Part shown: positions 1,628 to 24,554 of the stretch, piece by piece | How positions within the stretch are numbered: the stretch's first letter is position 1 | Layout of the letters: each line of letters begins with the position of its first letter | UHGV virus genome: UHGV-0096129 | Length of the DNA stretch: 31,048 nucleotides | Source of the DNA: a virus | Strand: one strand, 5' to 3' | Program-made: the position numbers and the translations under genes | Notes under the pieces: generated by a model | Told to the model about the DNA's origin: nothing | Seen by the model: only the letters and a program-made list of their open reading frames with translations | Databases searched by the model: none

Positions 1628-3902
1628 AGCCTCCGGGCGTTTTGTCCCTCCGTCAGCATTTGCTGCAGGCACCGGTAAGGCGTTTACCGGTGCTTATGCA
1701 TGGAACGCGCCACGCGAGGCCGTCGGGCGCGAAAGACCCCTTACACGTGACGAGATGCGTCAGGTGCAAGGTGTTTTATCCACGATTAACCGCCTGCCTT
1801 ACTTTTTGCGCTCGCTGTTTACTTCACGCTATGACTACATCCGGCGCAATAAAAGCCCGGTGCACGGGTTTTATTTCCTCACATCCACTTTTCAGCGTCG
1901 TTTATGGCCGCGCATTGAGCGTGTGAATCAGCGCCATGAAATGAACACCGACGCATCGTTACTGTTTCTGGCAGAGCGTGACCACTATGCGCGCCTGCCG
2001 GGAATGAATGACAAGGAGCTGAAAAAGTTTGCCGCCCGTATCTCATCGCAGCTTTTCATGATGTATGAGGAACTCAGCGATGCCTGGGTGGATGCGCATG
2101 GCGAAAAAGAATCACTGTTTACGGATGAGGCTCAGGCTCACCTGTATGGTCATGTTGCTGGCGCTGCACGTGCTTTCAATATTTCCCCGCTCTACTGGAA
2201 AAAATACCGTAAAGGACAGATAACCACGAGGCAGGCATATTCTGCCATTGCCCGCCTGTTTAACGATGAGTGGTGGACTCATCAGCTTAAAGGCCAGCGT
2301 ATGCGCTGGCATGAGGCGTTACTGATTGCTGTCGGGGAGGTCAATAAAGACCGTTCTCCTTATGCCAGTAAACATGCCATTCGTGATGTGCGTGCGCGCC
2401 GCCAGGCAAATCTGGAATTTCTTAAATCGTGTGACCTTGAAAACAGGGAAACCGGCGAGCGCATCGACCTTATCAGTAAGGTGATGGGCAGTATTTCTAA
2501 TCCTGAAATTCGCCGGATGGAGCTGATGAACACCATTGCCGGTATTGAACGTTACGCCGCCGCAGAGGGTGATGTGGGGATGTTTATCACGCTGACCGCG
2601 CCGTCAAAGTATCACCCGACACGTCAGGTCGGAAAAGGCGAAAGTAAAACCGTTCAGCTTAATCACGGCTGGAACGATGAGGCATTTAATCCAAAGGATG
2701 CGCAGCGTTATCTCTGCCGTATCTGGAGCCTGATGCGTACGGCATTCAAGGATAATGATTTACAGGTCTACGGTTTGCGTGTCGTCGAGCCACACCACGA
2801 CGGAACGCCGCACTGGCATATGATGCTTTTTTGTAATCCACGCCAGCGTAACCAGATTATCGAAATCATGCGTCGCTATGCGCTCAAAGAGGATGGCGAC
2901 GAAAGAGGAGCCGCGCGAAACCGTTTTCAGGCAAAGCACCTTAACCGGGGCGGTGCTGCGGGATATATCGCGAAATACATTTCAAAAAATATCGACGGCT
3001 ATGCACTGGATGGTCAGCTCGATAACGATACCGGTAAGCCGCTTAAAGATACTGCCGCGGCTGTTACCGCATGGGCGTCAACGTGGCGCATCCCGCAATT
3101 TAAAACGGTTGGACTGCCGACAATGGGGGCTTACCGTGAACTACGCAAATTGCCTCGCGGCGTCAGTATTGCTGATGAGTTTGACGAACGCGTCGAGGCT
3201 GCTCGCGCTGCCGCAGACAGTGGTGATTTTGCGTTGTATATCAGCGCGCAGGGTGGGGCAAATGTCCCGCGCGATTGTCAGACTGTCAGGGTTGCCCGTA
3301 GCCCGTCGGATGACGTTAACGAGTACGAGGAAGAAGTCGAGAGAGTGGTCGGCATTTACGCGCCGCATCTCGGCGCGCGTCATATTCATATCACCAGAAC
3401 GACGGACTGGCGCATTGTGCCGAAAGTTCCGCTCGTTGAGCCTTTGACTTTAAAAAGCGGCATCGCCGCGCCTCGGAGTCCTGTCAATAACTGTGGAAAG
3501 CTCACCGGTGGTGATACTTCGTTACCGGCTCCCACACCTTCTGAGCACGCCGCAGCAGTGCTTAATCTGGTTGATGACGGTGTTATTGAATGGAATGAAC
3601 CGGAGGTCGTGAGGGCGCTCAGGGGAGCATTAAAACACGGCCTGAAAACACCAAATCGTCAACAAAGAAACGGAAGCCCGTTAAAAACACATGAAATTGC
3701 ACCGTCGGCCAGACTGACCCGGTCGGAACGAATGCAAATCACCCGTATCCGCGTTGACCTTGCTCAGAACGGTATCAGGCCTCAGCGATGGGAGCTTGAG
3801 GCGCTGGCGCGTGGAGCGACCGTAAATTATGACGGGAAAAAATTCACGTATCCGGTCGCTGATGAGTGGCCGGGATTCTCAACAGTAATGGAGTGGACAT
3901 AA
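1617..3902 (+). CDS. A: rolling-circle replication initiation endonuclease gpA (HUH family)
   Basis: Long ORF (track start 1575); start at ATG 1617 (MAVKASGRF...) gives 761 aa, the length I recall for P2 gpA. Contains an HUH-type motif (TPHWHMMLF) and the paired-tyrosine active-site motif YIAKYISK characteristic of phiX174/P2 A-type initiators. Confidence 0.9.
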   Translation: MAVKASGRFVPPSAFAAGTGKAFTGAYAWNAPREAVGRERPLTRDEMRQVQGVLSTINRLPYFLRSLFTSRYDYIRRNKSPVHGFYFLTSTFQRRLWPRIERVNQRHEMNTDASLLFLAERDHYARLPGMNDKELKKFAARISSQLFMMYEELSDAWVDAHGEKESLFTDEAQAHLYGHVAGAARAFNISPLYWKKYRKGQITTRQAYSAIARLFNDEWWTHQLKGQRMRWHEALLIAVGEVNKDRSPYASKHAIRDVRARRQANLEFLKSCDLENRETGERIDLISKVMGSISNPEIRRMELMNTIAGIERYAAAEGDVGMFITLTAPSKYHPTRQVGKGESKTVQLNHGWNDEAFNPKDAQRYLCRIWSLMRTAFKDNDLQVYGLRVVEPHHDGTPHWHMMLFCNPRQRNQIIEIMRRYALKEDGDERGAARNRFQAKHLNRGGAAGYIAKYISKNIDGYALDGQLDNDTGKPLKDTAAAVTAWASTWRIPQFKTVGLPTMGAYRELRKLPRGVSIADEFDERVEAARAAADSGDFALYISAQGGANVPRDCQTVRVARSPSDDVNEYEEEVERVVGIYAPHLGARHIHITRTTDWRIVPKVPLVEPLTLKSGIAAPRSPVNNCGKLTGGDTSLPAPTPSEHAAAVLNLVDDGVIEWNEPEVVRALRGALKHGLKTPNRQQRNGSPLKTHEIAPSARLTRSERMQITRIRVDLAQNGIRPQRWELEALARGATVNYDGKKFTYPVADEWPGFSTVMEWT
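3468..3487 (+). other. candidate replication origin / gpA nick region inside gene A
   Basis: Sequence GCGCCTCGGAGTCCTGTCAA lies in the 3' part of gene A, where P2 ori is located; from memory it resembles the P2/186 gpA cleavage region. Exact identity not verifiable here. Confidence 0.3.
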
Positions 3903-4354
3903 TGGCAAAAATTCACGAGGTAAAGCTGCACGCAAAATATTTTGACCTTGTGCTGGAAGGAAAGAAACGCGCAGAGTTTCGGAAAAATGACCGTAATTAT
4001 GAGCGCGGGGACACGTTGATTTTGCATGAATGGGTGCAGGGTGTGTATACGGGGCGAAAGGTTGAAGCCCAGATAACAGATGTTACTGACCTGTCAGACT
4101 GGCTGGAAGATTATGTCTTGCTAAGTATTGAGCGGCTTAATACAGGCGCATGTGAGATTGTGAACTGGAAAGAACTTAGTGAGCGTGGTCTGGTATTCAG
4201 AATTAATCATGAAATTATGCATCAGCTCGGCCTTGCTGTTATGTATGAACCAGAGACGGGGATGTCTGGCGGGGCAATGGTTGCCACGGATGGAGCATGG
4301 AACTATTCAGATGAACAGATTGAGCGTGCACAGCAAAACGGGTGGCTTGGATAA
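3902..4354 (+). CDS. DUF3850 / ASCH-like (PUA-fold) domain protein
   Basis: TAATG overlap with the gene A stop; N-terminal ~80 aa (KIHEVKLHAKYFDLVLEGKKRAEFRKNDRNYERGDTLILHEW...YTGR) matches the DUF3850 signature as I recall it (HELK..YF......K.FE.RKNDR....GD.L.L.E....YTGR). C-terminal ~70 aa unrecognised. Occupies the P2 orf91 position but is longer. Confidence 0.6.
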   Translation: MAKIHEVKLHAKYFDLVLEGKKRAEFRKNDRNYERGDTLILHEWVQGVYTGRKVEAQITDVTDLSDWLEDYVLLSIERLNTGACEIVNWKELSERGLVFRINHEIMHQLGLAVMYEPETGMSGGAMVATDGAWNYSDEQIERAQQNGWLG

Positions 4355-4789: not shown

Positions 4790-5521
4790 ATGGATACTGT
4801 AATCGCTTTTCTATCACTCGCTTTTTTCGTTGCTTTTTTCATCGGATTAATCAAACCATCACTGGTGCGGATGCCAAACCGTAAAAGTGCAAGTGCGGTT
4901 TATCTCGGAGGAGGTTTTGTATTGAGCATAATTGGTTCAATACTCTATCCAACAGAAAAAAGCCAGCCAGTTGCTAAAACTGAAACATCAACCGTTGCAG
5001 AACACCAAGTCCAAAAAAAATTCGAATATGGTGGAAAAACACTCAAGGAATATCGGAACGAGCCAAAGAAAACTCGACACGATATTGTGAATAGTTACAT
5101 TGATTTTAAGGAAGTGCCAGTCACCGCATCAGATGCATTTTATGCCTGCATGAGTGAATATACTTTTACCAAAGATGATGAGTTGAAACTCGGTGATGTT
5201 CTTGGATGGTGCTTTAATGATTATGAAAAAGATCCGAAATCACTAAACAATAAAATCAACCTTGATACATTTCAGAGTAATTTTAGCGGTTGGGATGGTT
5301 CTTATCGACCATTGGAAAAGCTAATTAAAGAGAATATGAACGATGATTCATCTTATAAACATGTGTCAACAGTGTATCATTTGGTTTTGAATAAAGATCC
5401 GCACGCCATTGTGAAAACAACATTTCGCGGAACTAATGCTTATGGCGGAGTGGTGAAACAGACCGTTGCGGCGCGCGTCAATGTTCGAACTGGTGAGGTA
5501 ACTTCAATAATTGATAACTAA
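4790..5521 (+). CDS. hypothetical membrane protein (two N-terminal hydrophobic helices plus ~190-aa soluble domain)
   Basis: Track ORF 4766..5521 begins at GTG; the ATG at 4790 has AAGGA 8 nt upstream. Hydrophobic segments VIAFLSLAFFVAFFIGLI and AVYLGGGFVLSIIGSILY. AT-rich, unlike the phage backbone. No known domain recognised. Confidence 0.6.
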   Translation: MDTVIAFLSLAFFVAFFIGLIKPSLVRMPNRKSASAVYLGGGFVLSIIGSILYPTEKSQPVAKTETSTVAEHQVQKKFEYGGKTLKEYRNEPKKTRHDIVNSYIDFKEVPVTASDAFYACMSEYTFTKDDELKLGDVLGWCFNDYEKDPKSLNNKINLDTFQSNFSGWDGSYRPLEKLIKENMNDDSSYKHVSTVYHLVLNKDPHAIVKTTFRGTNAYGGVVKQTVAARVNVRTGEVTSIIDN

Positions 5522-5548
5522 AGTGAAGGGCTAGGCCATGTTATGTTT

Positions 5549-5569
5549 AAGCCATAATATGGCTTTTTT
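5549..5569 (+). terminator. weak hairpin plus T-run between the two forward cargo genes
   Basis: AAGCCA-taata-TGGCTT followed by TTTT; short AT-rich stem, so at best a partial terminator or attenuator. Confidence 0.2.
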
Positions 5570-5603
5570 ATGATTTGGGTAAATTGATAAGGAGTCGATT
5601 TAA

Positions 5604-6200
5604 ATGAATTCAAAAAAAAGGAATAAATACCTCAAGTTAATGTTTGAGTGTAGAAAAAGAATTGAAACGCTACATGATTTAGCATCCGGACATACAGGAG
5701 GACTTTATCTTCAAGTTTTAATAGAAATAGAAGCGTTACAACTCAGAAAGTTATTGGAGCTTATCGCATTTTCATCGTTAATTTCATATGAGGAATCCTA
5801 TAAGACTGTTGCGAAGAGTATTGATGGTGTATGGAAAGCCAAGCGTATTATAAGTGAGTTAGAAAAAATAAATCCAAATTTTTACCCGTTACCTGTATCA
5901 TCATTTACCAATGACGGGTGGAAGAAATTGAAAGGTGGATATTTAACAAAAAAACAATTTATTGCACTGTATGATGAATGTTCAACTCATATTCATGTTA
6001 GAAACCCATACAGGATAAGCGAAAACTCGCTGGCTTTTCATAGAAAAGTACCTTCATACTTAGAGAGAATTGAATGTTTATTATCTAAACATATTGTTTC
6101 ACTTGTAGATGATAGGGAGTTTCTTTTTGTAGAGGTACCTCATTTTGAAGATTCGGCTACCCCTCTAAGAATTAGATGTTTAATTAAAAATAGAGGGTAA
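5604..6200 (+). CDS. hypothetical protein (198 aa), second gene of the forward cargo module
   Basis: ATG with AAGGAG 9 nt upstream; AT-rich; no recognisable catalytic motif (no Walker A, no obvious nuclease signature). Confidence 0.65.
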   Translation: MNSKKRNKYLKLMFECRKRIETLHDLASGHTGGLYLQVLIEIEALQLRKLLELIAFSSLISYEESYKTVAKSIDGVWKAKRIISELEKINPNFYPLPVSSFTNDGWKKLKGGYLTKKQFIALYDECSTHIHVRNPYRISENSLAFHRKVPSYLERIECLLSKHIVSLVDDREFLFVEVPHFEDSATPLRIRCLIKNRG

Positions 6201-6446
6201 ATTTTTATTATCCCTTAATGATAACTTACATTAGTTATGATAAAAGTTTGATAACGTCAGTAGTGCTGGAGCTGTCCTTCAGCACTGATGGAGTTGAACA
6301 ATGAGCACTTCTGGACGTTATATTAATACTGATATAGTTAGTGGTTTTATTCTAAATTATTAGCGTAGCGCCGAAACTCACTATTTACAATGGTGGGGTA
6401 ACGCTGAAAGAACCGGAGCGTAGATATCTTTTTTTACTGAAAAATT

Positions 6447-6468
6447 GTGGTCAATATTGCTTGACCAC
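6447..6468. repeat. 8-bp inverted repeat (GTGGTCAA tattgc TTGACCAC) in the convergent intergenic spacer
   Basis: Seen directly; on the minus strand the hairpin is followed by AATTTTT, so it could be a terminator for the FRG-domain gene or a protein-binding palindrome. Confidence 0.3.
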
Positions 6469-6616
6469 TATACAGCGTCAGTTCAAACTACAATTAATAA
6501 AGTTAAGGTTCATAGCCTTTTTGAAGGGTACGTATCCAAGAGGCCTGTGCTCACTATGTGGTAAAGAGTCAAAATATCGTTATGTCTGATTCTTACGCAC
6601 AATTGTAATATTTCTT

Positions 6617-7972
6617 TTAAATGTCAGACATATATTTCTTTGCGATTTCAGAAGCTGTCTTTTCTATACTTGGATAAACAGTGCTCTCAGTAATGTTCAA
6701 TTGTGCAAGTTCTTTCAAGATTATTTTTTTATTAACTATGTCAACTCTGTCAAGAGGAAAGTCTTCTGTTGTCTCTGGGAGTACTGCCTCGTGACCAAAT
6801 AATAGAAATGCGCCAGACTGTGATTGAATGCGTTCATTATTTATTCTGGCGCGGATGAATAGTATTTTCCGAAGATCATGCAGGTCTATATTTTTTTTAA
6901 AATATGGTTTTTCAGCTTGAATATGATCTAAAAGTTTATTGAGTAGTTCTTTTGCGTGAGATTTGTCGTTTTCAATTAAGCTTTTTGATATAGTGCTTAA
7001 GATATTGTGTGGCATAAATGCCAGATTGGCTATACAGCTAACAGTATCAGAGTCAAAATATTTGATATTTTTTCTTTCTGTAGGAAACGAGATGACTTGT
7101 CCGGTGTCTTCAGGATCTTCACAGCATGCAAAATATAAAGCAATTAGCGGGTTGGATGTAATATCTAGCAATCTTGTAGGTAAACCATAATGCTGCATTC
7201 TAACTAATTTATCGATCGTAAAATTATCAGATATAAATTCATTAGGCCTTGCTGACAGAATTTCACGAACCATAGATGATTCTGAATCAAGGTGCTTATG
7301 AGTCCCGTTATCATGTTTCCGGAAAAGAGATGGGATAAGTTCATATTTATTTCGTGAATGTCCTCTATAAAAAATTTCAGAGTTTGAATTGTTGGATTTT
7401 TCTATAAAACTGATATATTCCTTTAAGCTCTTTATTTTTCTTATTTTTGATGTTCTTTTGATGTTTCCAATTTTGGAGGTGTTAGAGAGAATTTTTTCAG
7501 TTGTATCGTTTTTGGTTTTATTTAGCTCAAGTTTTAGCAGTGTTTCTCTTAATTTTTTATCTTTAACTGCCCAGTGGGTTCTGCTAAGACCATAAGCACC
7601 TAAGTCTAATATTTCTTTATATTGTTTTATTTCGGGGTTCTTGATTTCGCCAAAATCATGAACGATTTCAAAGTGATAACAAACATCATCATTGTCTATG
7701 TGTAAGTTGCCGACTTTTCCAAGTCTTACTCTTAAATATCTATTTTTGTCACCGTCTTTATCGTATATTTCAGTCATGAAAAGAACAGGTAGCTTAGATA
7801 GAGCGTCTAAAGTTATAGGGCTTACTGGTGTTAATTTTTTATAAAGTAAGGATGGTGTACCTTCTAGCATTCGGGAAAGAGAGAAACTATCTTCCCCATT
7901 TTTAATATTAGGATCCATAGATGGCCATCTATCAAACACAGAGGGCTCACCCCCGATAATGAGATTAAACAT
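6617..7972 (-). CDS. FRG-domain protein with uncharacterised ~190-aa N-terminal domain
   Basis: 451-aa ORF with AAGGAG 5-6 nt upstream of the ATG. C-terminal half carries motifs I recognise as the FRG domain (IFYRGHSRNKYELIPSLFR ... MQHYGLPTRLLDITSNPLIALYFAC ... SQSGAFLLFG). N-terminal domain and lysine-rich linker unrecognised. Strongly AT-rich. Confidence 0.7.
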   Translation of the reverse strand: MFNLIIGGEPSVFDRWPSMDPNIKNGEDSFSLSRMLEGTPSLLYKKLTPVSPITLDALSKLPVLFMTEIYDKDGDKNRYLRVRLGKVGNLHIDNDDVCYHFEIVHDFGEIKNPEIKQYKEILDLGAYGLSRTHWAVKDKKLRETLLKLELNKTKNDTTEKILSNTSKIGNIKRTSKIRKIKSLKEYISFIEKSNNSNSEIFYRGHSRNKYELIPSLFRKHDNGTHKHLDSESSMVREILSARPNEFISDNFTIDKLVRMQHYGLPTRLLDITSNPLIALYFACCEDPEDTGQVISFPTERKNIKYFDSDTVSCIANLAFMPHNILSTISKSLIENDKSHAKELLNKLLDHIQAEKPYFKKNIDLHDLRKILFIRARINNERIQSQSGAFLLFGHEAVLPETTEDFPLDRVDIVNKKIILKELAQLNITESTVYPSIEKTASEIAKKYMSDI

Positions 7973-8230
7973 TCTAACTCCTTTTTACTTAAGAAATGAC
8001 ATTGATTGTCTTAATGTTGTCGTAAGGGCGATGTAGATTGCCAGATCTGATTCAGCACTACCAGAGAAAACTGTCAGTCTATGTTTGACTCTGTGGGAAG
8101 GTAGTTTTGCGTACATTATTGCATCAAATTGCATTTGCTATTATTTGGCCTTTCATACAAATGAGCTCAAAACTGACGTGCTTTCGCCTGGCTTATACAT
8201 TTGCATCAAAACCGACCCATGAAGCGGGCG

Positions 8231-8249
8231 GGCGAGGCGGGGAAAGCAC
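8231..8249. other. cos site (19-nt cohesive end, P2-type)
   Basis: GGCGAGGCGGGGAAAGCAC followed by TGCGCGCTG.CGGTGGTGCTGATT matches the left end of the P2 genome as I recall it; location between the accessory region and Q matches P2 prophage topology. Confidence 0.7.
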
Positions 8250-8418: not shown

Positions 8419-9453
8419 TCAGCCGTTGTCAGTGTCCAGTGAGTAGTTTTTAAAGCGGATGACCTCCTGACCGAGCCAGCCGTTTATTTCCCGAATCCTG
8501 TCCTGTAACGGGATAAGCTCATTGCGGACAAAGACCTTTGCCACTTTCTCAATATCGCCCAGCGACCCGACATTCTCCGGCTTACCGCCCATCAACTGAA
8601 AGGGGATGCGGTGTGCGTCCAGCAGGTCAGCGGCGCTGGCTTTTTTGATATTAAAAAAATCGTCCTTCGTTGCCACTTCACTGAGCGGGATAATTTTAAT
8701 ACCGTCGGCTTTTCCCTGTGGGGCGTAGAGAAACAGGTTTTTAAAGTTGTTGCGGCCTTTCGACTTCACCATGTTTTCGCGAAGCATTTCGATATCGTTG
8801 CGATCCTGCACGGCATCGGTGACGTACATGATGTATCCGGCATGTGCGCCATTTTCGTAATACTTGCGGCGGAACAGCGTGGCCGACTCATTCAGCCAGG
8901 CAGAGTTAAGGGCGCTGAGATATTCCGGCAGGCCGTACAGCTCCTGATTAATATCCGGCTCCAGCAGGTGAAATACGGAGCCGGGCGCGAAAGGTGTCGG
9001 CTCGTTGAAGGACGGCACCCACCAGTAAACATCCTCCTCCACGCCACGGCGGGTATATTTTGCCGGTGAGGTTTCCAGTCTGATGACCTTACCGGTGGTG
9101 CTGTAACGCTTTTCCAGAAACGCATTACCGAACACCAGAAAATCCAGCACAAAGCGGCTGAAATCCTGCTGGGAAAGCCACGGGTGCGGGATAAACGTTG
9201 AAGCCAGAATATTACGTTTGACGTAAATCGGTGAGCTGTGATGCACGGCAGCACGCAGACTTTTTGCCAGACCGGTAAAGCTGACCGGCGGCTCATACCA
9301 TCTGCCGTTACTGATGCATTCGACGTAATCCAGAATGTCACGGCGGTCGAGTACCGGCACCGGCTCGCCAAAGGTGAATGCCTCCATTTTCGGGGCGCTG
9401 GCGGTCATTGTTTTTGCCGCAGGTTGCGGTGTTTTCCCTTTTTTCTTGCTCAT
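8419..9453 (-). CDS. Q: portal protein gpQ
   Basis: 344 aa, the P2 Q length as I recall it; ATGA overlap with the P stop; position next to cos and the terminase gene. Confidence 0.9.
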   Translation of the reverse strand: MSKKKGKTPQPAAKTMTASAPKMEAFTFGEPVPVLDRRDILDYVECISNGRWYEPPVSFTGLAKSLRAAVHHSSPIYVKRNILASTFIPHPWLSQQDFSRFVLDFLVFGNAFLEKRYSTTGKVIRLETSPAKYTRRGVEEDVYWWVPSFNEPTPFAPGSVFHLLEPDINQELYGLPEYLSALNSAWLNESATLFRRKYYENGAHAGYIMYVTDAVQDRNDIEMLRENMVKSKGRNNFKNLFLYAPQGKADGIKIIPLSEVATKDDFFNIKKASAADLLDAHRIPFQLMGGKPENVGSLGDIEKVAKVFVRNELIPLQDRIREINGWLGQEVIRFKNYSLDTDNG

Positions 9454-23437: not shown

Positions 23438-23515
23438 ATTACCTAACACATTGGTAACCTTCACAGATTTACGCGTTCTACATAGTTAGCATTGTATCTG
23501 ATGAGTTATCATGTT

Positions 23516-24295
23516 TTAAAATATCCAACTGATAAATCCACCTGAATACTTTTCACTAATTTTGATTGCATAAAGATCATGAAGAGTTATAAATAAATCA
23601 TTATCTTCTTTGAAAATTAACTCCTCATATTCTGCCATTATCAAATTATGCTGTGTTGTTAGTTTAGATATGTTATCTATTTCACTGGCAAGCATGGATT
23701 TGTTTACATTGGTGTGTGGATCCATGGCAATATATTTCCGCATCAATGGAATTAGTTGATCAGGGTCTATATTTTTTGCATTTTCCTTTGCTTTTTTTTG
23801 TCTTTCTGAATAGATGGAGTTAATTGTGTCAGTGTGTTTTTTCGCCAGTCTCTTAAACTCTGGATATGAACCAGTAACTAATGCAAGCTCTTCGTACTTA
23901 AGGAATAAATCGATATTGCATTTTTTTACCGTCATTTCAAGATCTTCAACTCTTTTTTTTAACTCTTCATTTGTTTTAATAAGAGACATCGGGAGAACTT
24001 CATAATGTTGTCCTAATTCTGAATCAGGGCTCATTGCCATATGTACTATTTCATTATACATGAGCTGATAAGAAGCAGATAACTCTCCATACTTTAGAAA
24101 TAGTTCATTATGTGAAGATGAACAAGAACTTTGTAATTTCATCATTGGCCTAAAGTAATCCTTTATAAACTCCTCCTGAAGATCTTGGTCTTTTTTGTAG
24201 CTCTCTAGGATTCCAGCAAAAAGAAATGACCCTAAAGATATAGAGATTATGGATATTAGCAATTGACTAAGGAATGATTGTGTTTCATTACTCAT
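23516..24295 (-). CDS. hypothetical membrane-anchored protein at the Z/fun hotspot
   Basis: 259 aa with AAGGA 6 nt upstream of the ATG. N-terminal hydrophobic helix (FLSQLLISIISISLGSFLFAGIL) followed by a Lys/Glu-rich, helix-prone domain. Strongly AT-rich; reverse orientation between G and FI. Confidence 0.65.
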   Translation of the reverse strand: MSNETQSFLSQLLISIISISLGSFLFAGILESYKKDQDLQEEFIKDYFRPMMKLQSSCSSSHNELFLKYGELSASYQLMYNEIVHMAMSPDSELGQHYEVLPMSLIKTNEELKKRVEDLEMTVKKCNIDLFLKYEELALVTGSYPEFKRLAKKHTDTINSIYSERQKKAKENAKNIDPDQLIPLMRKYIAMDPHTNVNKSMLASEIDNISKLTTQHNLIMAEYEELIFKEDNDLFITLHDLYAIKISEKYSGGFISWIF

Positions 24296-24554
24296 AAAAC
24301 ATCCTTAAAAAATAACACGAAAAGTGACTCCTGACAGGGAAGAAACGACAGGTCGGAAACAAACTTAACTGATGAGTTAGCCGTAGTCCAGAACCTTGTT
24401 TGAACACTTAGTGTGACTGTTTGCATCTCAGGAATTTGTGCCAATAATATTTGAATCCTTATAATTTATTTAAATCAAATTTAGTTACTCGCTCAAAGCA
24501 GGCTGTCAGATTTGATAGCGTTTGGGCTATGTAAACTGTCAGTCGGAAAATGAG

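Follow-up and report, generated by a model that had tools for sequence, protein, structure and literature searches.

A P2-type prophage hotspot gene joins a PUA-like domain to an FRG domain and may encode a single-protein anti-phage sensor-effector

What does the FRG-domain protein encoded next to the packaging site of a P2-type prophage of E. coli do? The gene lies within a stretch of 31,048 nucleotides (UHGV virus genome UHGV-0096129), referred to here as the window, where the ORF list places it, complete, at 6617..7972 on the minus strand; its 451-aa product consists of a PUA-like domain, a variable linker and an FRG effector region. Its GC content is 33.5% vs 51% for the window, in agreement with the preliminary description of an AT-rich, reverse-strand gene. 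An exact match to the P2 cos 19-mer, which we take to be GGCGAGGCGGGGAAAGCAC, is present at 8231..8249 (no strand assigned), outside the gene module; it was invariant in three P2-type loci and lies 259 bp from the start codon of the FRG gene. Beyond cos are the portal gene Q (8419-9453) and then the terminase gene P; on the other side, the FRG gene lies in an AT-rich island (approximately 5000-8000), ahead of which come replication gene A and a gene for a DUF3850 protein. The interval from gpA to gpQ has been published as a hotspot of P2, where old and tin reside in P2 itself (PMC9122126), so that the earlier assignment of the gene to the cos-proximal site of the tin/old hotspot was correct. 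The accompanying statement that the gene sits alone was not, as the ORF list shows two more plus-strand ORFs in the same island, one for a membrane protein of 243 aa (4790-5521) and one of 198 aa (5604-6200). Both were considered as hidden partners and rejected: the 243-aa neighbor is present in 84 E. coli genomes, from 77 of which FRG is absent, and in Yersinia phage vB_YpM_50 the hotspot carries a homolog of the 198-aa neighbor and no other cargo. A 49-aa ORF upstream of the FRG gene was also rejected as a partner, being unconserved in seven other contexts. The island is made up of three stacked, independent cargo modules, the FRG gene among them.

The FRG gene begins with ATG, and direct reading of the sequence revealed a ribosome-binding site, AAGGAG, 5 nt 5' of it at 7978..7983 (minus strand). 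When the locus was aligned with two other P2-type hotspots, backbone conservation started only at ~8100-8200, toward cos; the cargo-specific upstream region between, at 7984..8100 (minus strand), is presumed to hold the gene's own promoter. A sigma-70 consensus scan of the gene strand upstream of the gene gave no site, and an Rfam scan across the AT-rich island gave no match. A terminator-like hairpin with an 8-bp stem and a T-rich tail, located by consensus scan only at 6447..6468 (minus strand), ~150 nt past the stop codon, is a putative end of transcription. A locus 99.5% identical carries the RefSeq name "FRG domain-containing protein" (WP_097486606), and full-length homologs, with identities as low as 42%, were found across Proteobacteria. 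Such homologs reside in two P2-type hotspots, gpA-gpQ being one of them, in defense or mobile islands of chromosomes, and at a moron site of a lambdoid phage. A 48%-identical homolog lies in the same gpA-gpQ hotspot adjoining different cargo, an RVT_1 reverse transcriptase; in another P2-type prophage, one of 72% identity is the only cargo between the tail-fiber genes and the tail genes; and one of 59% identity is an antisense moron of the lambdoid phage Tritos. Other homologs were found in a variable island of Klebsiella, beside a TIR cluster together with a remnant of Tn3, and, in Sphingomonas, as a single-gene chromosomal insertion between rph/Ham1 and hemN. The gene moves as a stand-alone unit; none of the 8 contexts examined contained a conserved partner gene.

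The FRG effector region comprises residues 189-448 (6629..7408, minus strand). Residues 199-288 (nt 7109-7378), the Pfam core, matched positions 2-91 of the 94-position PF08867 profile with 81.5 bits (cut-off 25; E=8.9e-23), and all motifs quoted in the preliminary description as an FRG-domain signature were present and conserved, including F201-Y-R203-G204 and the QH-G-LPTRLLD and xNP-L-ALYFA blocks. Residues R203, G204, R218, H261, P265, T266, L268, D270, N274, G291, R381, Q385, G387, and K415 are invariant among distant FRG proteins of a widespread family (at least 3901 matches, in Proteobacteria, Gram-positive phages, and gut phages). The FRG domain has no solved structural relative: sequence searches gave none with a solved structure at E≤10, and Foldseek against the PDB returned nothing significant. 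The primary FRG paper, by Burroughs and Aravind in 2020, reportedly describes Frg as a clade of the ADP-ribosyltransferase (ART) superfamily. The domain had been described to us as having no established biochemical function, and this holds insofar as the searchable literature yielded no demonstrated activity or phenotype for any FRG protein; it overlooks a published computational assignment, from Aravind's group, of FRG to the ART superfamily as a predicted NADase effector (PMC9503650), and the Frg clade has been grouped there with the RES clade (Iyer et al. 2022). ARTs have an H-Y-E or R-S-E catalytic triad whose Glu precedes strand 5; when we looked for it, it was absent, no Glu being invariant among distant FRG proteins. 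R203 lies on the first strand and fits the ART pattern; the invariant Q385, within the sequence SQSG, would, by our mapping of the strands, precede the strand on which classical ARTs carry the catalytic Glu. Because an invariant Glu is absent and Q385 is present instead, classical NADase or ART chemistry is not assured for FRG. Derived ART clades also deviate from the classical triad (R-E-S in RES, R-H-R-R in Tpt1), so that FRG may belong to the superfamily even with the triad missing.

The N-terminus, previously thought to match nothing, proved to be a recognizable domain that TIR, HEPN, and kinase effectors also carry. Residues 1-148 (7529..7972, minus strand) form a PUA-like (EVE/YTH/ASCH-class) beta-barrel domain, a putative ligand sensor, with the signature W16, S-R34-x-L-E37-x-T39, LP62-x-LF65-x-x-E68, G85, and R131-T-H-W134-A-V-K137. 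A Pfam search with residues 1-165 gave no match at E≤10 and hence none to EVE (PF01878), ASCH (PF04266), or YTH (PF04146); the DUF3850 protein encoded in the window, used as a control, matched ASCH at 7.7e-11. This nucleotide-reader-like domain, joined here to FRG, was previously unrecognized. In the full-length AF2 model (pLDDT 85, pTM 0.81) the pTM suggests that the domains are held in a fixed position relative to each other, an arrangement compatible with autoinhibition. Between them, the variable linker (residues 149-188; 7409..7528, minus strand) had a lower pLDDT of 71-75. Its lysine richness, pointed out in the preliminary description, was rejected as a functional feature: over 60 homologs the mean identity of the linker is 13% and its net charge ranges from -11 to +7, and it is lysine-rich in this lineage only, being proline-rich or acidic in others. 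The lysines are probably a by-product of AT-rich composition.

The N-domain family contains 902 protein clusters, and among 96 members scanned the domain was joined to a CAP12/Pycsar-type TIR in 21, to FRG in 17, and to Abi_C/HEPN in 7, with TIR_2/TIR, protein kinases, SLFN/AlbA_2, and SEFIR as further partners; in all fusions examined in detail, it precedes the effector, and behind it FRG is interchangeable with TIR, HEPN, and kinase effectors. One candidate for a validated relative sharing the sensor, PD-T4-6, was discarded, since in the kinase fusions its models hit the kinase domain and nothing else. As the same N-domain stands ahead of TIR or FRG, FRG occupies a slot otherwise held by an NADase TIR. 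A sensor-effector whose FRG domain had nothing to do with NAD+ and served as a nuclease, nucleotidase, phosphotransferase, or oligomerizing scaffold, for example, seems to us distinctly improbable.

The fold of the N-domain also bears on what it might bind. The closest solved folds include readers of polymers, namely THYN1 (5mC DNA), the N-terminal domain of McrB (m5C DNA), VcaM4I, and the 5hmC-specific PD-T4-3, as would be expected if the domain read a modified base in phage DNA or RNA in the manner of type IV restriction and of EVE, YTH, SRA-type, and McrB N-terminal readers, while the tethered FRG domain ADP-ribosylated the nucleic acid, as DarT does, or blocked it, with no need for cell death. 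The invariant set of FRG is basic (R203, R218, H261, R381, and K415) and would suit a phosphate-bearing substrate; it resembles the Arg/His-rich active site typical of Tpt1/KptA-type ART enzymes. HNH and McrB are also on record among the partners of PUA-like domains (Zhang et al.). We nevertheless consider this arrangement unlikely. The N-domain partners found here were TIR, HEPN, kinase, and FRG, with a nuclease or McrB in 0 of the 96 members scanned; and the one PUA sensor that has been tested bound DNA promiscuously, DNA binding not being its trigger. The N-domain itself is acidic (median net charge -4, median pI 5.4), and in one distant relative a single ORF encodes a CD-NTase, then the N-domain, then FRG; because of this cyclase-sensor-FRG fusion and the acidity, a small nucleotide ligand is favored over polymer binding.

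Is the protein then part of a defense system? A PADLOC search matched it to 14 models of PDC-S15 (best E=5.7e-98, residues 169-448), the only family matched. The PDCs (Payne et al. 2024 bioRxiv) go back to genes that lie inside BREX, DISARM, and type I R-M loci, and the FRG gene resembles PDC-S15 in its FRG region, in its format as a single gene with no required partner, and in that defense has been inferred from genomic embedding. It differs in that the best-matching models (286-300 positions) span the FRG half only and lack the N-terminal PUA-like domain. As PDC-S15 is described as "still uncharacterized", membership says nothing on function. FRG loci at this hotspot were listed by Rousset et al., whose account of the systems tested does not include FRG. 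The proposal of an uncharacterized anti-phage candidate thus stands in part: the hotspot and mobility context and the embedding of PDC-S15 speak for it, whereas it was already a catalogued candidate, both as PDC-S15 and in the list of Rousset et al. With no FRG phenotype in the searchable literature, defense is a role that we infer.

A phage-borne gene with a nucleotide-reader-type fold and a published connection to the ART superfamily and ADPr (PMC9503650), in a class of hotspot that carries non-defense cargo too (PMC9122126), might serve the phage, either by binding and destroying a nucleotide signal of host immunity, such as the ADPr-derived signals of Thoeris or cyclic oligonucleotides, or by manipulating the NAD+/ADPr metabolism of the host. 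Such counter-defense appears very unlikely to us. This architecture is also found outside prophages, the single-gene chromosomal insertion being one example; FRG genes lie repeatedly within BREX, DISARM, and R-M loci; the other partners of the sensor domain are classic suicide effectors (TIR, HEPN, and kinases) and not signal sponges or hydrolases; and fusion to a CD-NTase makes the protein part of a signaling system and not an inhibitor of it.

We propose, with a probability of roughly one half, that the gene, carried as P2-type hotspot cargo, codes for an anti-phage sensor-effector that is complete in one polypeptide and brings about abortive infection through PUA-like sensing coupled to FRG. 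The FRG gene would presumably be expressed from the lysogen. During infection a nucleotide-type danger signal, most likely a free and possibly modified mononucleotide or a nucleotide-derived small molecule, would arise and bind the PUA-like domain (residues 1-148), and this binding would lift the autoinhibition of FRG or drive its assembly. FRG, as a highly derived ART-superfamily enzyme, would then consume NAD+ or ADP-ribosylate an essential target, and the infection would be aborted. The protein is most likely such a one-protein anti-phage switch, which would kill or starve the infected cell.

A more specific form of this proposal, which we offer only tentatively and hold to be rather doubtful, is that the N-domain represents a new, unmodeled PUA-like receptor family for a free nucleotide other than m6-dAMP, wired by domain swapping to effectors of four classes or more (TIR, FRG, HEPN, and kinase), and that FRG performs NAD+-consuming or ADP-ribosyl-transferring chemistry without the canonical Glu. 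Candidate signals could then be a cytosine-derived or phage-specific modified mononucleotide or a nucleotide second messenger; Osterman et al. predict "other Metis" systems that sense other modified mononucleotides. If the sensor-effector proposal is correct, it would provide the first functional handle on the widespread FRG domain. It would also bring another family of PUA-like sensors, distinct in sequence from the first, under the newly discovered principle that free (modified) nucleotides betray an infection to bacteria, and it would account for a further cargo that recurs at the cos-proximal hotspot of P2 and at moron sites of lambdoid phages. As the same sensor stands ahead of TIR, HEPN, kinase, and FRG, identification of one ligand would explain the trigger of ~900 protein clusters. 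The gene, a single one of 1.36 kb with E. coli as host, makes the proposal directly testable.

Among known systems, P2 old and tin share with the FRG gene the hotspot, the cos-proximal position, and the nature of lysogen-borne cargo, and the gene reads away from cos, as P2 old does. It differs from them in having no sequence relationship, only PDC-S15 being matched in PADLOC-DB, a result that presupposes Old and Tin models in that database, and only FRG in Pfam.

There is a parallel in design with Metis and PUA-Cal-HAD, in which m6-dAMP-binding PUA-like sensors activate NAD+- or dNTP-depleting effectors (bioRxiv 10.1101/2025.11.05.686725; 10.64898/2026.01.15.699771). Membership in that group also entails dependence on dam and on phage denA. 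As in Metis type I and PUA-Cal-HAD (MisA-MisB), an N-terminal PUA-class domain is followed by an effector in the same order; the Metis effector is metabolite-depleting (NAD+), the Metis PUA family is also fused to TIR and HEPN, and the C-terminal strand motifs are similar (RTHWAVK here, RTIWFVR in Metis/PUA-Cal-HAD). In contrast, the Trp-rich motifs from which the proven m6-dAMP sensor builds its aromatic nucleobase pocket, motif II (VWWGWWxKxxExxP) and motif V (TPxYY), are absent here. When the N-domain was compared by hhalign with a profile of the PUA-Cal sensor, built from 67 loci collected by motif, LPxLFxxE aligned with TPxYY and motif II had no counterpart; the two runs gave probabilities of 1.3% and 4.7% (P=0.008), which are not significant. 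The effector also differs, being a Calcineurin-CE metallophosphatase in Metis/PUA-Cal-HAD and FRG here; no Metallophos or HAD match was obtained with the protein or its neighbors, Metallophos was found in 0 of the 96 N-domain relatives, and a "cleaner" enzyme against autoimmunity, such as MisB, is not present. As the gene has neither the Calcineurin effector nor the HAD partner nor the defining motifs, we judge it to be analogous to Metis/PUA-Cal-HAD, not a member, and its sensor appears to belong to a different PUA-like family.

From the TIR effectors of CBASS and Pycsar (Cap12 and PycTIR) and from the single-protein TIR candidates of PADLOC (PDC-S35) the gene differs in having no TIR, no cyclase gene nearby, and a sensor that is not a SAVED, STING, or cNMP-binding domain; the island and seven other contexts contained no CD-NTase or pyrimidine cyclase with which the gene could form an operon, a fused CD-NTase occurring only in the one distant relative. 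The likeness to these effectors lies in the sister proteins, in which a CAP12/Pycsar-type TIR takes the position of FRG behind the identical N-domain.

The FRG gene was found where the preliminary description had placed it, at 6617..7972 on the minus strand, encoding 451 aa from an ATG start with the ribosome-binding site AAGGAG 5 nt upstream. Its GC content is 33.5%, against 51% for the window, an E. coli prophage of the P2 type, and it lies in an AT-rich island (about 5000-8000; GC 0.32-0.38 versus about 0.55 in the flanks) that is 99.5% identical to E. coli strain STEC2017-197, in which RefSeq gives the order gpA replication endonuclease, DUF3850, hypothetical, two hypotheticals, 'FRG domain-containing protein', portal, and terminase. 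The island as a whole is rare: of 5426 complete E. coli genomes, 7 carry it. The P2 cos 19-mer (8231-8249) is 259 bp from the FRG start codon; the gene resides in the gpA-gpQ interval, which Rousset et al. (PMC9122126) describe as the cos-proximal defence hotspot that holds old and tin in P2. On the same strand, a 49-aa ORF (7985-8134) stops 12 nt short of the FRG start codon; RefSeq does not annotate it and FRG homologs at other loci lack a counterpart upstream, so that it is probably either spurious or a leader. At its other end the gene is separated from a convergent 198-aa gene by 416 bp of non-coding DNA (6201-6616), which has no match in Rfam and includes a 42-aa ORF (6461-6589) and, on the minus strand, a terminator-like hairpin (6447-6468).

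The proposed FRG domain was borne out by an unambiguous Pfam match (E=8.9e-23, 81.5 bits, cut-off 25). At about 260 residues (189-448), the conserved unit far exceeds the Pfam model of 94 residues; the PADLOC PDC-S15 models cover it. Residues R203, G204, R218, H261, P265, T266, L268, D270, N274, G291, R381, Q385, G387, and K415 are invariant in 18 distant FRG proteins, which include Lactococcus phage TP901-1 ORF54 and human gut phage contigs. ORF54 (1543-1878 of comparison locus L087), annotated as 111 aa, spans the first half of the FRG region but not the second, and lies directly after the lysis genes; next come ORF55 and a Fic-family gene, in that order. In this Gram-positive temperate phage, ORF54 may represent a truncated or minimal FRG. 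Iyer et al. (PMC9503650) put the Frg clade of the ADP-ribosyltransferase (ART) superfamily together with the RES clade, citing Burroughs & Aravind 2020. In the searchable literature we came upon no experimental study of an FRG protein, and Rousset et al. (PMC9122126) do not include FRG among the systems described as tested. The gene is, as had been suggested, an uncharacterised defence candidate, but not an unlisted one: databases already record the FRG family as a candidate, namely PDC-S15, 1 of 145 that PADLOC predicts from genes embedded in loci for BREX, DISARM, or type I R-M. An FRG gene in the P2 hotspot as a defence candidate would not astonish a specialist.

The N-terminal half and a lysine-rich linker had been described as matching nothing recognisable. 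Alignment of 60 full-length homologs revealed two conserved blocks with a hypervariable linker between them, whose mean identity is 13%; the lysine richness is therefore only local. Residues 1-148 form a PUA-like barrel, the ART signal coming from the FRG half. No Pfam model matched this N-terminal domain even at E<=10, in a search where the DUF3850 protein of the window, used as a control, matched ASCH at 7.7e-11. A profile search among 1.84 billion representatives yielded 902 clusters at E<=1e-3, and a Pfam scan of 96 of these showed that the effector is swapped: CAP12/Pycsar-type TIR was the partner in 21, FRG in 17, and Abi_C, the HEPN domain of AbiJ, in 7. Other partners were TIR_2, TIR, and protein kinases, with single cases of AbiJ_NTD3, SLFN/AlbA_2, SEFIR, a nucleotide cyclase, and a DncV-like nucleotidyltransferase. 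In fusions examined in detail the domain was always N-terminal to the effector, and, whatever the fusion type, conservation of R34, E37, T39, P62, E68, G85, R131, T132, H133, W134, and A135 is 90% or higher. This pattern is the classical footprint of a putative sensor or regulatory domain in conflict systems, with FRG predicted to take the functional position that NADase TIR domains fill in other fusions. Recognition of the N-terminal half as a PUA-like domain appears to be new, as does the finding that this unmodelled family is common to TIR, HEPN, kinase, and FRG effectors and to a cyclase fusion.

This fusion (P0188) is a 760-aa single ORF (5001-7283 of locus L086) consisting of a CBASS-type CD-NTase (1-307), the N-terminal domain family (313-444), and FRG (478-750). 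The ORF is genuine, on a 51-kb contig with transposases on either side and a Druantia gene (DruA) nearby, and its single polypeptide has the appearance of an entire pathway from cyclase through sensor to effector. Taken with the existence of the cyclase fusion, the acidity of the N-terminal domain (median net charge -4, pI 5.4) speaks more for a small nucleotide-type ligand than for binding of a polymer. A rival reading, in which a type IV-like protein would recognise modified nucleic acid of the phage and direct FRG onto it, we regard as unlikely. We propose, with a probability of about 0.5, that the gene is a one-protein abortive-infection system in which a PUA-like sensor switches on the FRG effector. 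The PUA-like domain would bind a nucleotide-type danger signal and, once bound, would de-repress or assemble the effector, which would deplete NAD+ or ADP-ribosylate an essential target. The analysis establishes the PUA-like fold, the conservation, the mobility of the gene by itself, its place in the hotspot, and the swapping of effectors; the role in defence, the class of ligand, the substrate, and the outcome are inferred. An FRG activity without relation to NAD+ we regard as somewhat less likely than the type IV-like reading. Given the sensor-domain result, trigger and FRG activity alike can be tested directly in E. coli on a construct of 1.4 kb.

Homologs with the same architecture, some as little as 42% identical, are spread widely through the Proteobacteria, and their neighbours differ greatly between loci. 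They are the only cargo in the tail-fibre/tail gene interval of another P2-type prophage (P0004, 72% identity); part of a Klebsiella variable island (P0013, 62%); adjacent to a Tn3 remnant and TIR cluster (P0006, 63%); an antisense moron between the replication genes and Q in phage Tritos (59%); in Sphingomonas, a lone gene inserted between rph/Ham1 and hemN (P0104, 43%); and, in the same P2 hotspot, next to a reverse-transcriptase cassette (P0053, 48%). A counter-defence or other phage-benefit function, to which the phage loci would be open, is quite improbable beside insertions such as that in Sphingomonas. In the P2 hotspot of locus L006 (7474-8902), the 48%-identical FRG allele is convergent to an RVT_1 reverse transcriptase gene (316 aa) accompanied by 106-aa and 51-aa ORFs, a cassette that may be a retron or Abi-P2-type system. 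The arrangement is recurrent: 'FRG' occurs 16 times in supplementary Table S5 of Rousset et al. (PMC9122126), with entries such as 'hypothetical + FRG + RVT_1' at the P2 hotspot.

Contrary to the preliminary description, the gene does not stand alone: the island carries three ORFs, the FRG gene being on the strand opposite to the other two. The three are independent modules, and the FRG gene is self-contained. The first (4790-5521, plus strand; phrog_3403) encodes a protein of 243 aa for which two N-terminal transmembrane helices are predicted and which has no match in Pfam or PADLOC. Complete E. coli genomes with this gene number 84, and in 77 of these both other island genes are missing; accompanied mostly by different cargo, it is an independent hotspot module. 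The second (5604-6200, plus strand; phrog_13799) encodes a 198-aa helical protein, likewise without a Pfam or PADLOC match, whose only PDB sequence matches are designed helical-repeat proteins (5k7v, E=6e-7). Since Yersinia Peduovirus vB_YpM_50 has a homolog of 70% identity, and no other cargo, at this hotspot, the gene may be a further uncharacterised single-gene cargo or defence candidate. Directly after gpA lies a gene for a DUF3850/ASCH plus DUF7415 protein (3866-4354, plus strand), which vB_YpM_50 has too; it gives the phage another PUA-like (ASCH) protein, unrelated to the first, and seems to belong to the conserved backbone. Elsewhere, at 23500-24500, a second AT-rich island (GC 0.31-0.34) contains a 259-aa ORF (23516-24295, minus strand), a cargo gene flanked by tail-fibre and tail-sheath genes and without a match in Pfam or PADLOC; its site corresponds to the Z/fun hotspot of the P2 map.

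According to two recent preprints on the defence systems Metis (10.1101/2025.11.05.686725) and PUA-Cal-HAD (10.64898/2026.01.15.699771), a PUA-like domain with a Calcineurin-CE effector binds m6-dAMP, which arises from phage degradation of Dam-methylated host DNA, and binding leads to NAD+ and/or dNTP depletion and abortive infection. Zhang et al. name HEPN, DrHyd, TIR, HNH, and McrB as further partners of the PUA family and do not mention FRG. We rebuilt the PUA-Cal family alignment from 67 loci with motif II, reproducing VWWGWWxKxxExxP and TPxYY. Profile-profile comparison with our N-terminal domain gave no significant match, either with a shallow profile (probability 1.3%) or with 133 diverse sequences (probability 4.7%, P=0.008). 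The alignment was collinear, placing LPxLFxxE on TPxYY and RTHWAVK on RTIWFVR, and left motif II without a counterpart. Because the match was non-significant and motif II was lacking, we treat the domain as a putative distinct family of the same fold class, not as a member of the PUA-Cal family; by analogy, it may work like the PUA-Cal sensor. Both the parallel to the sensors of Metis and PUA-Cal-HAD and the distinction from them appear to be new.
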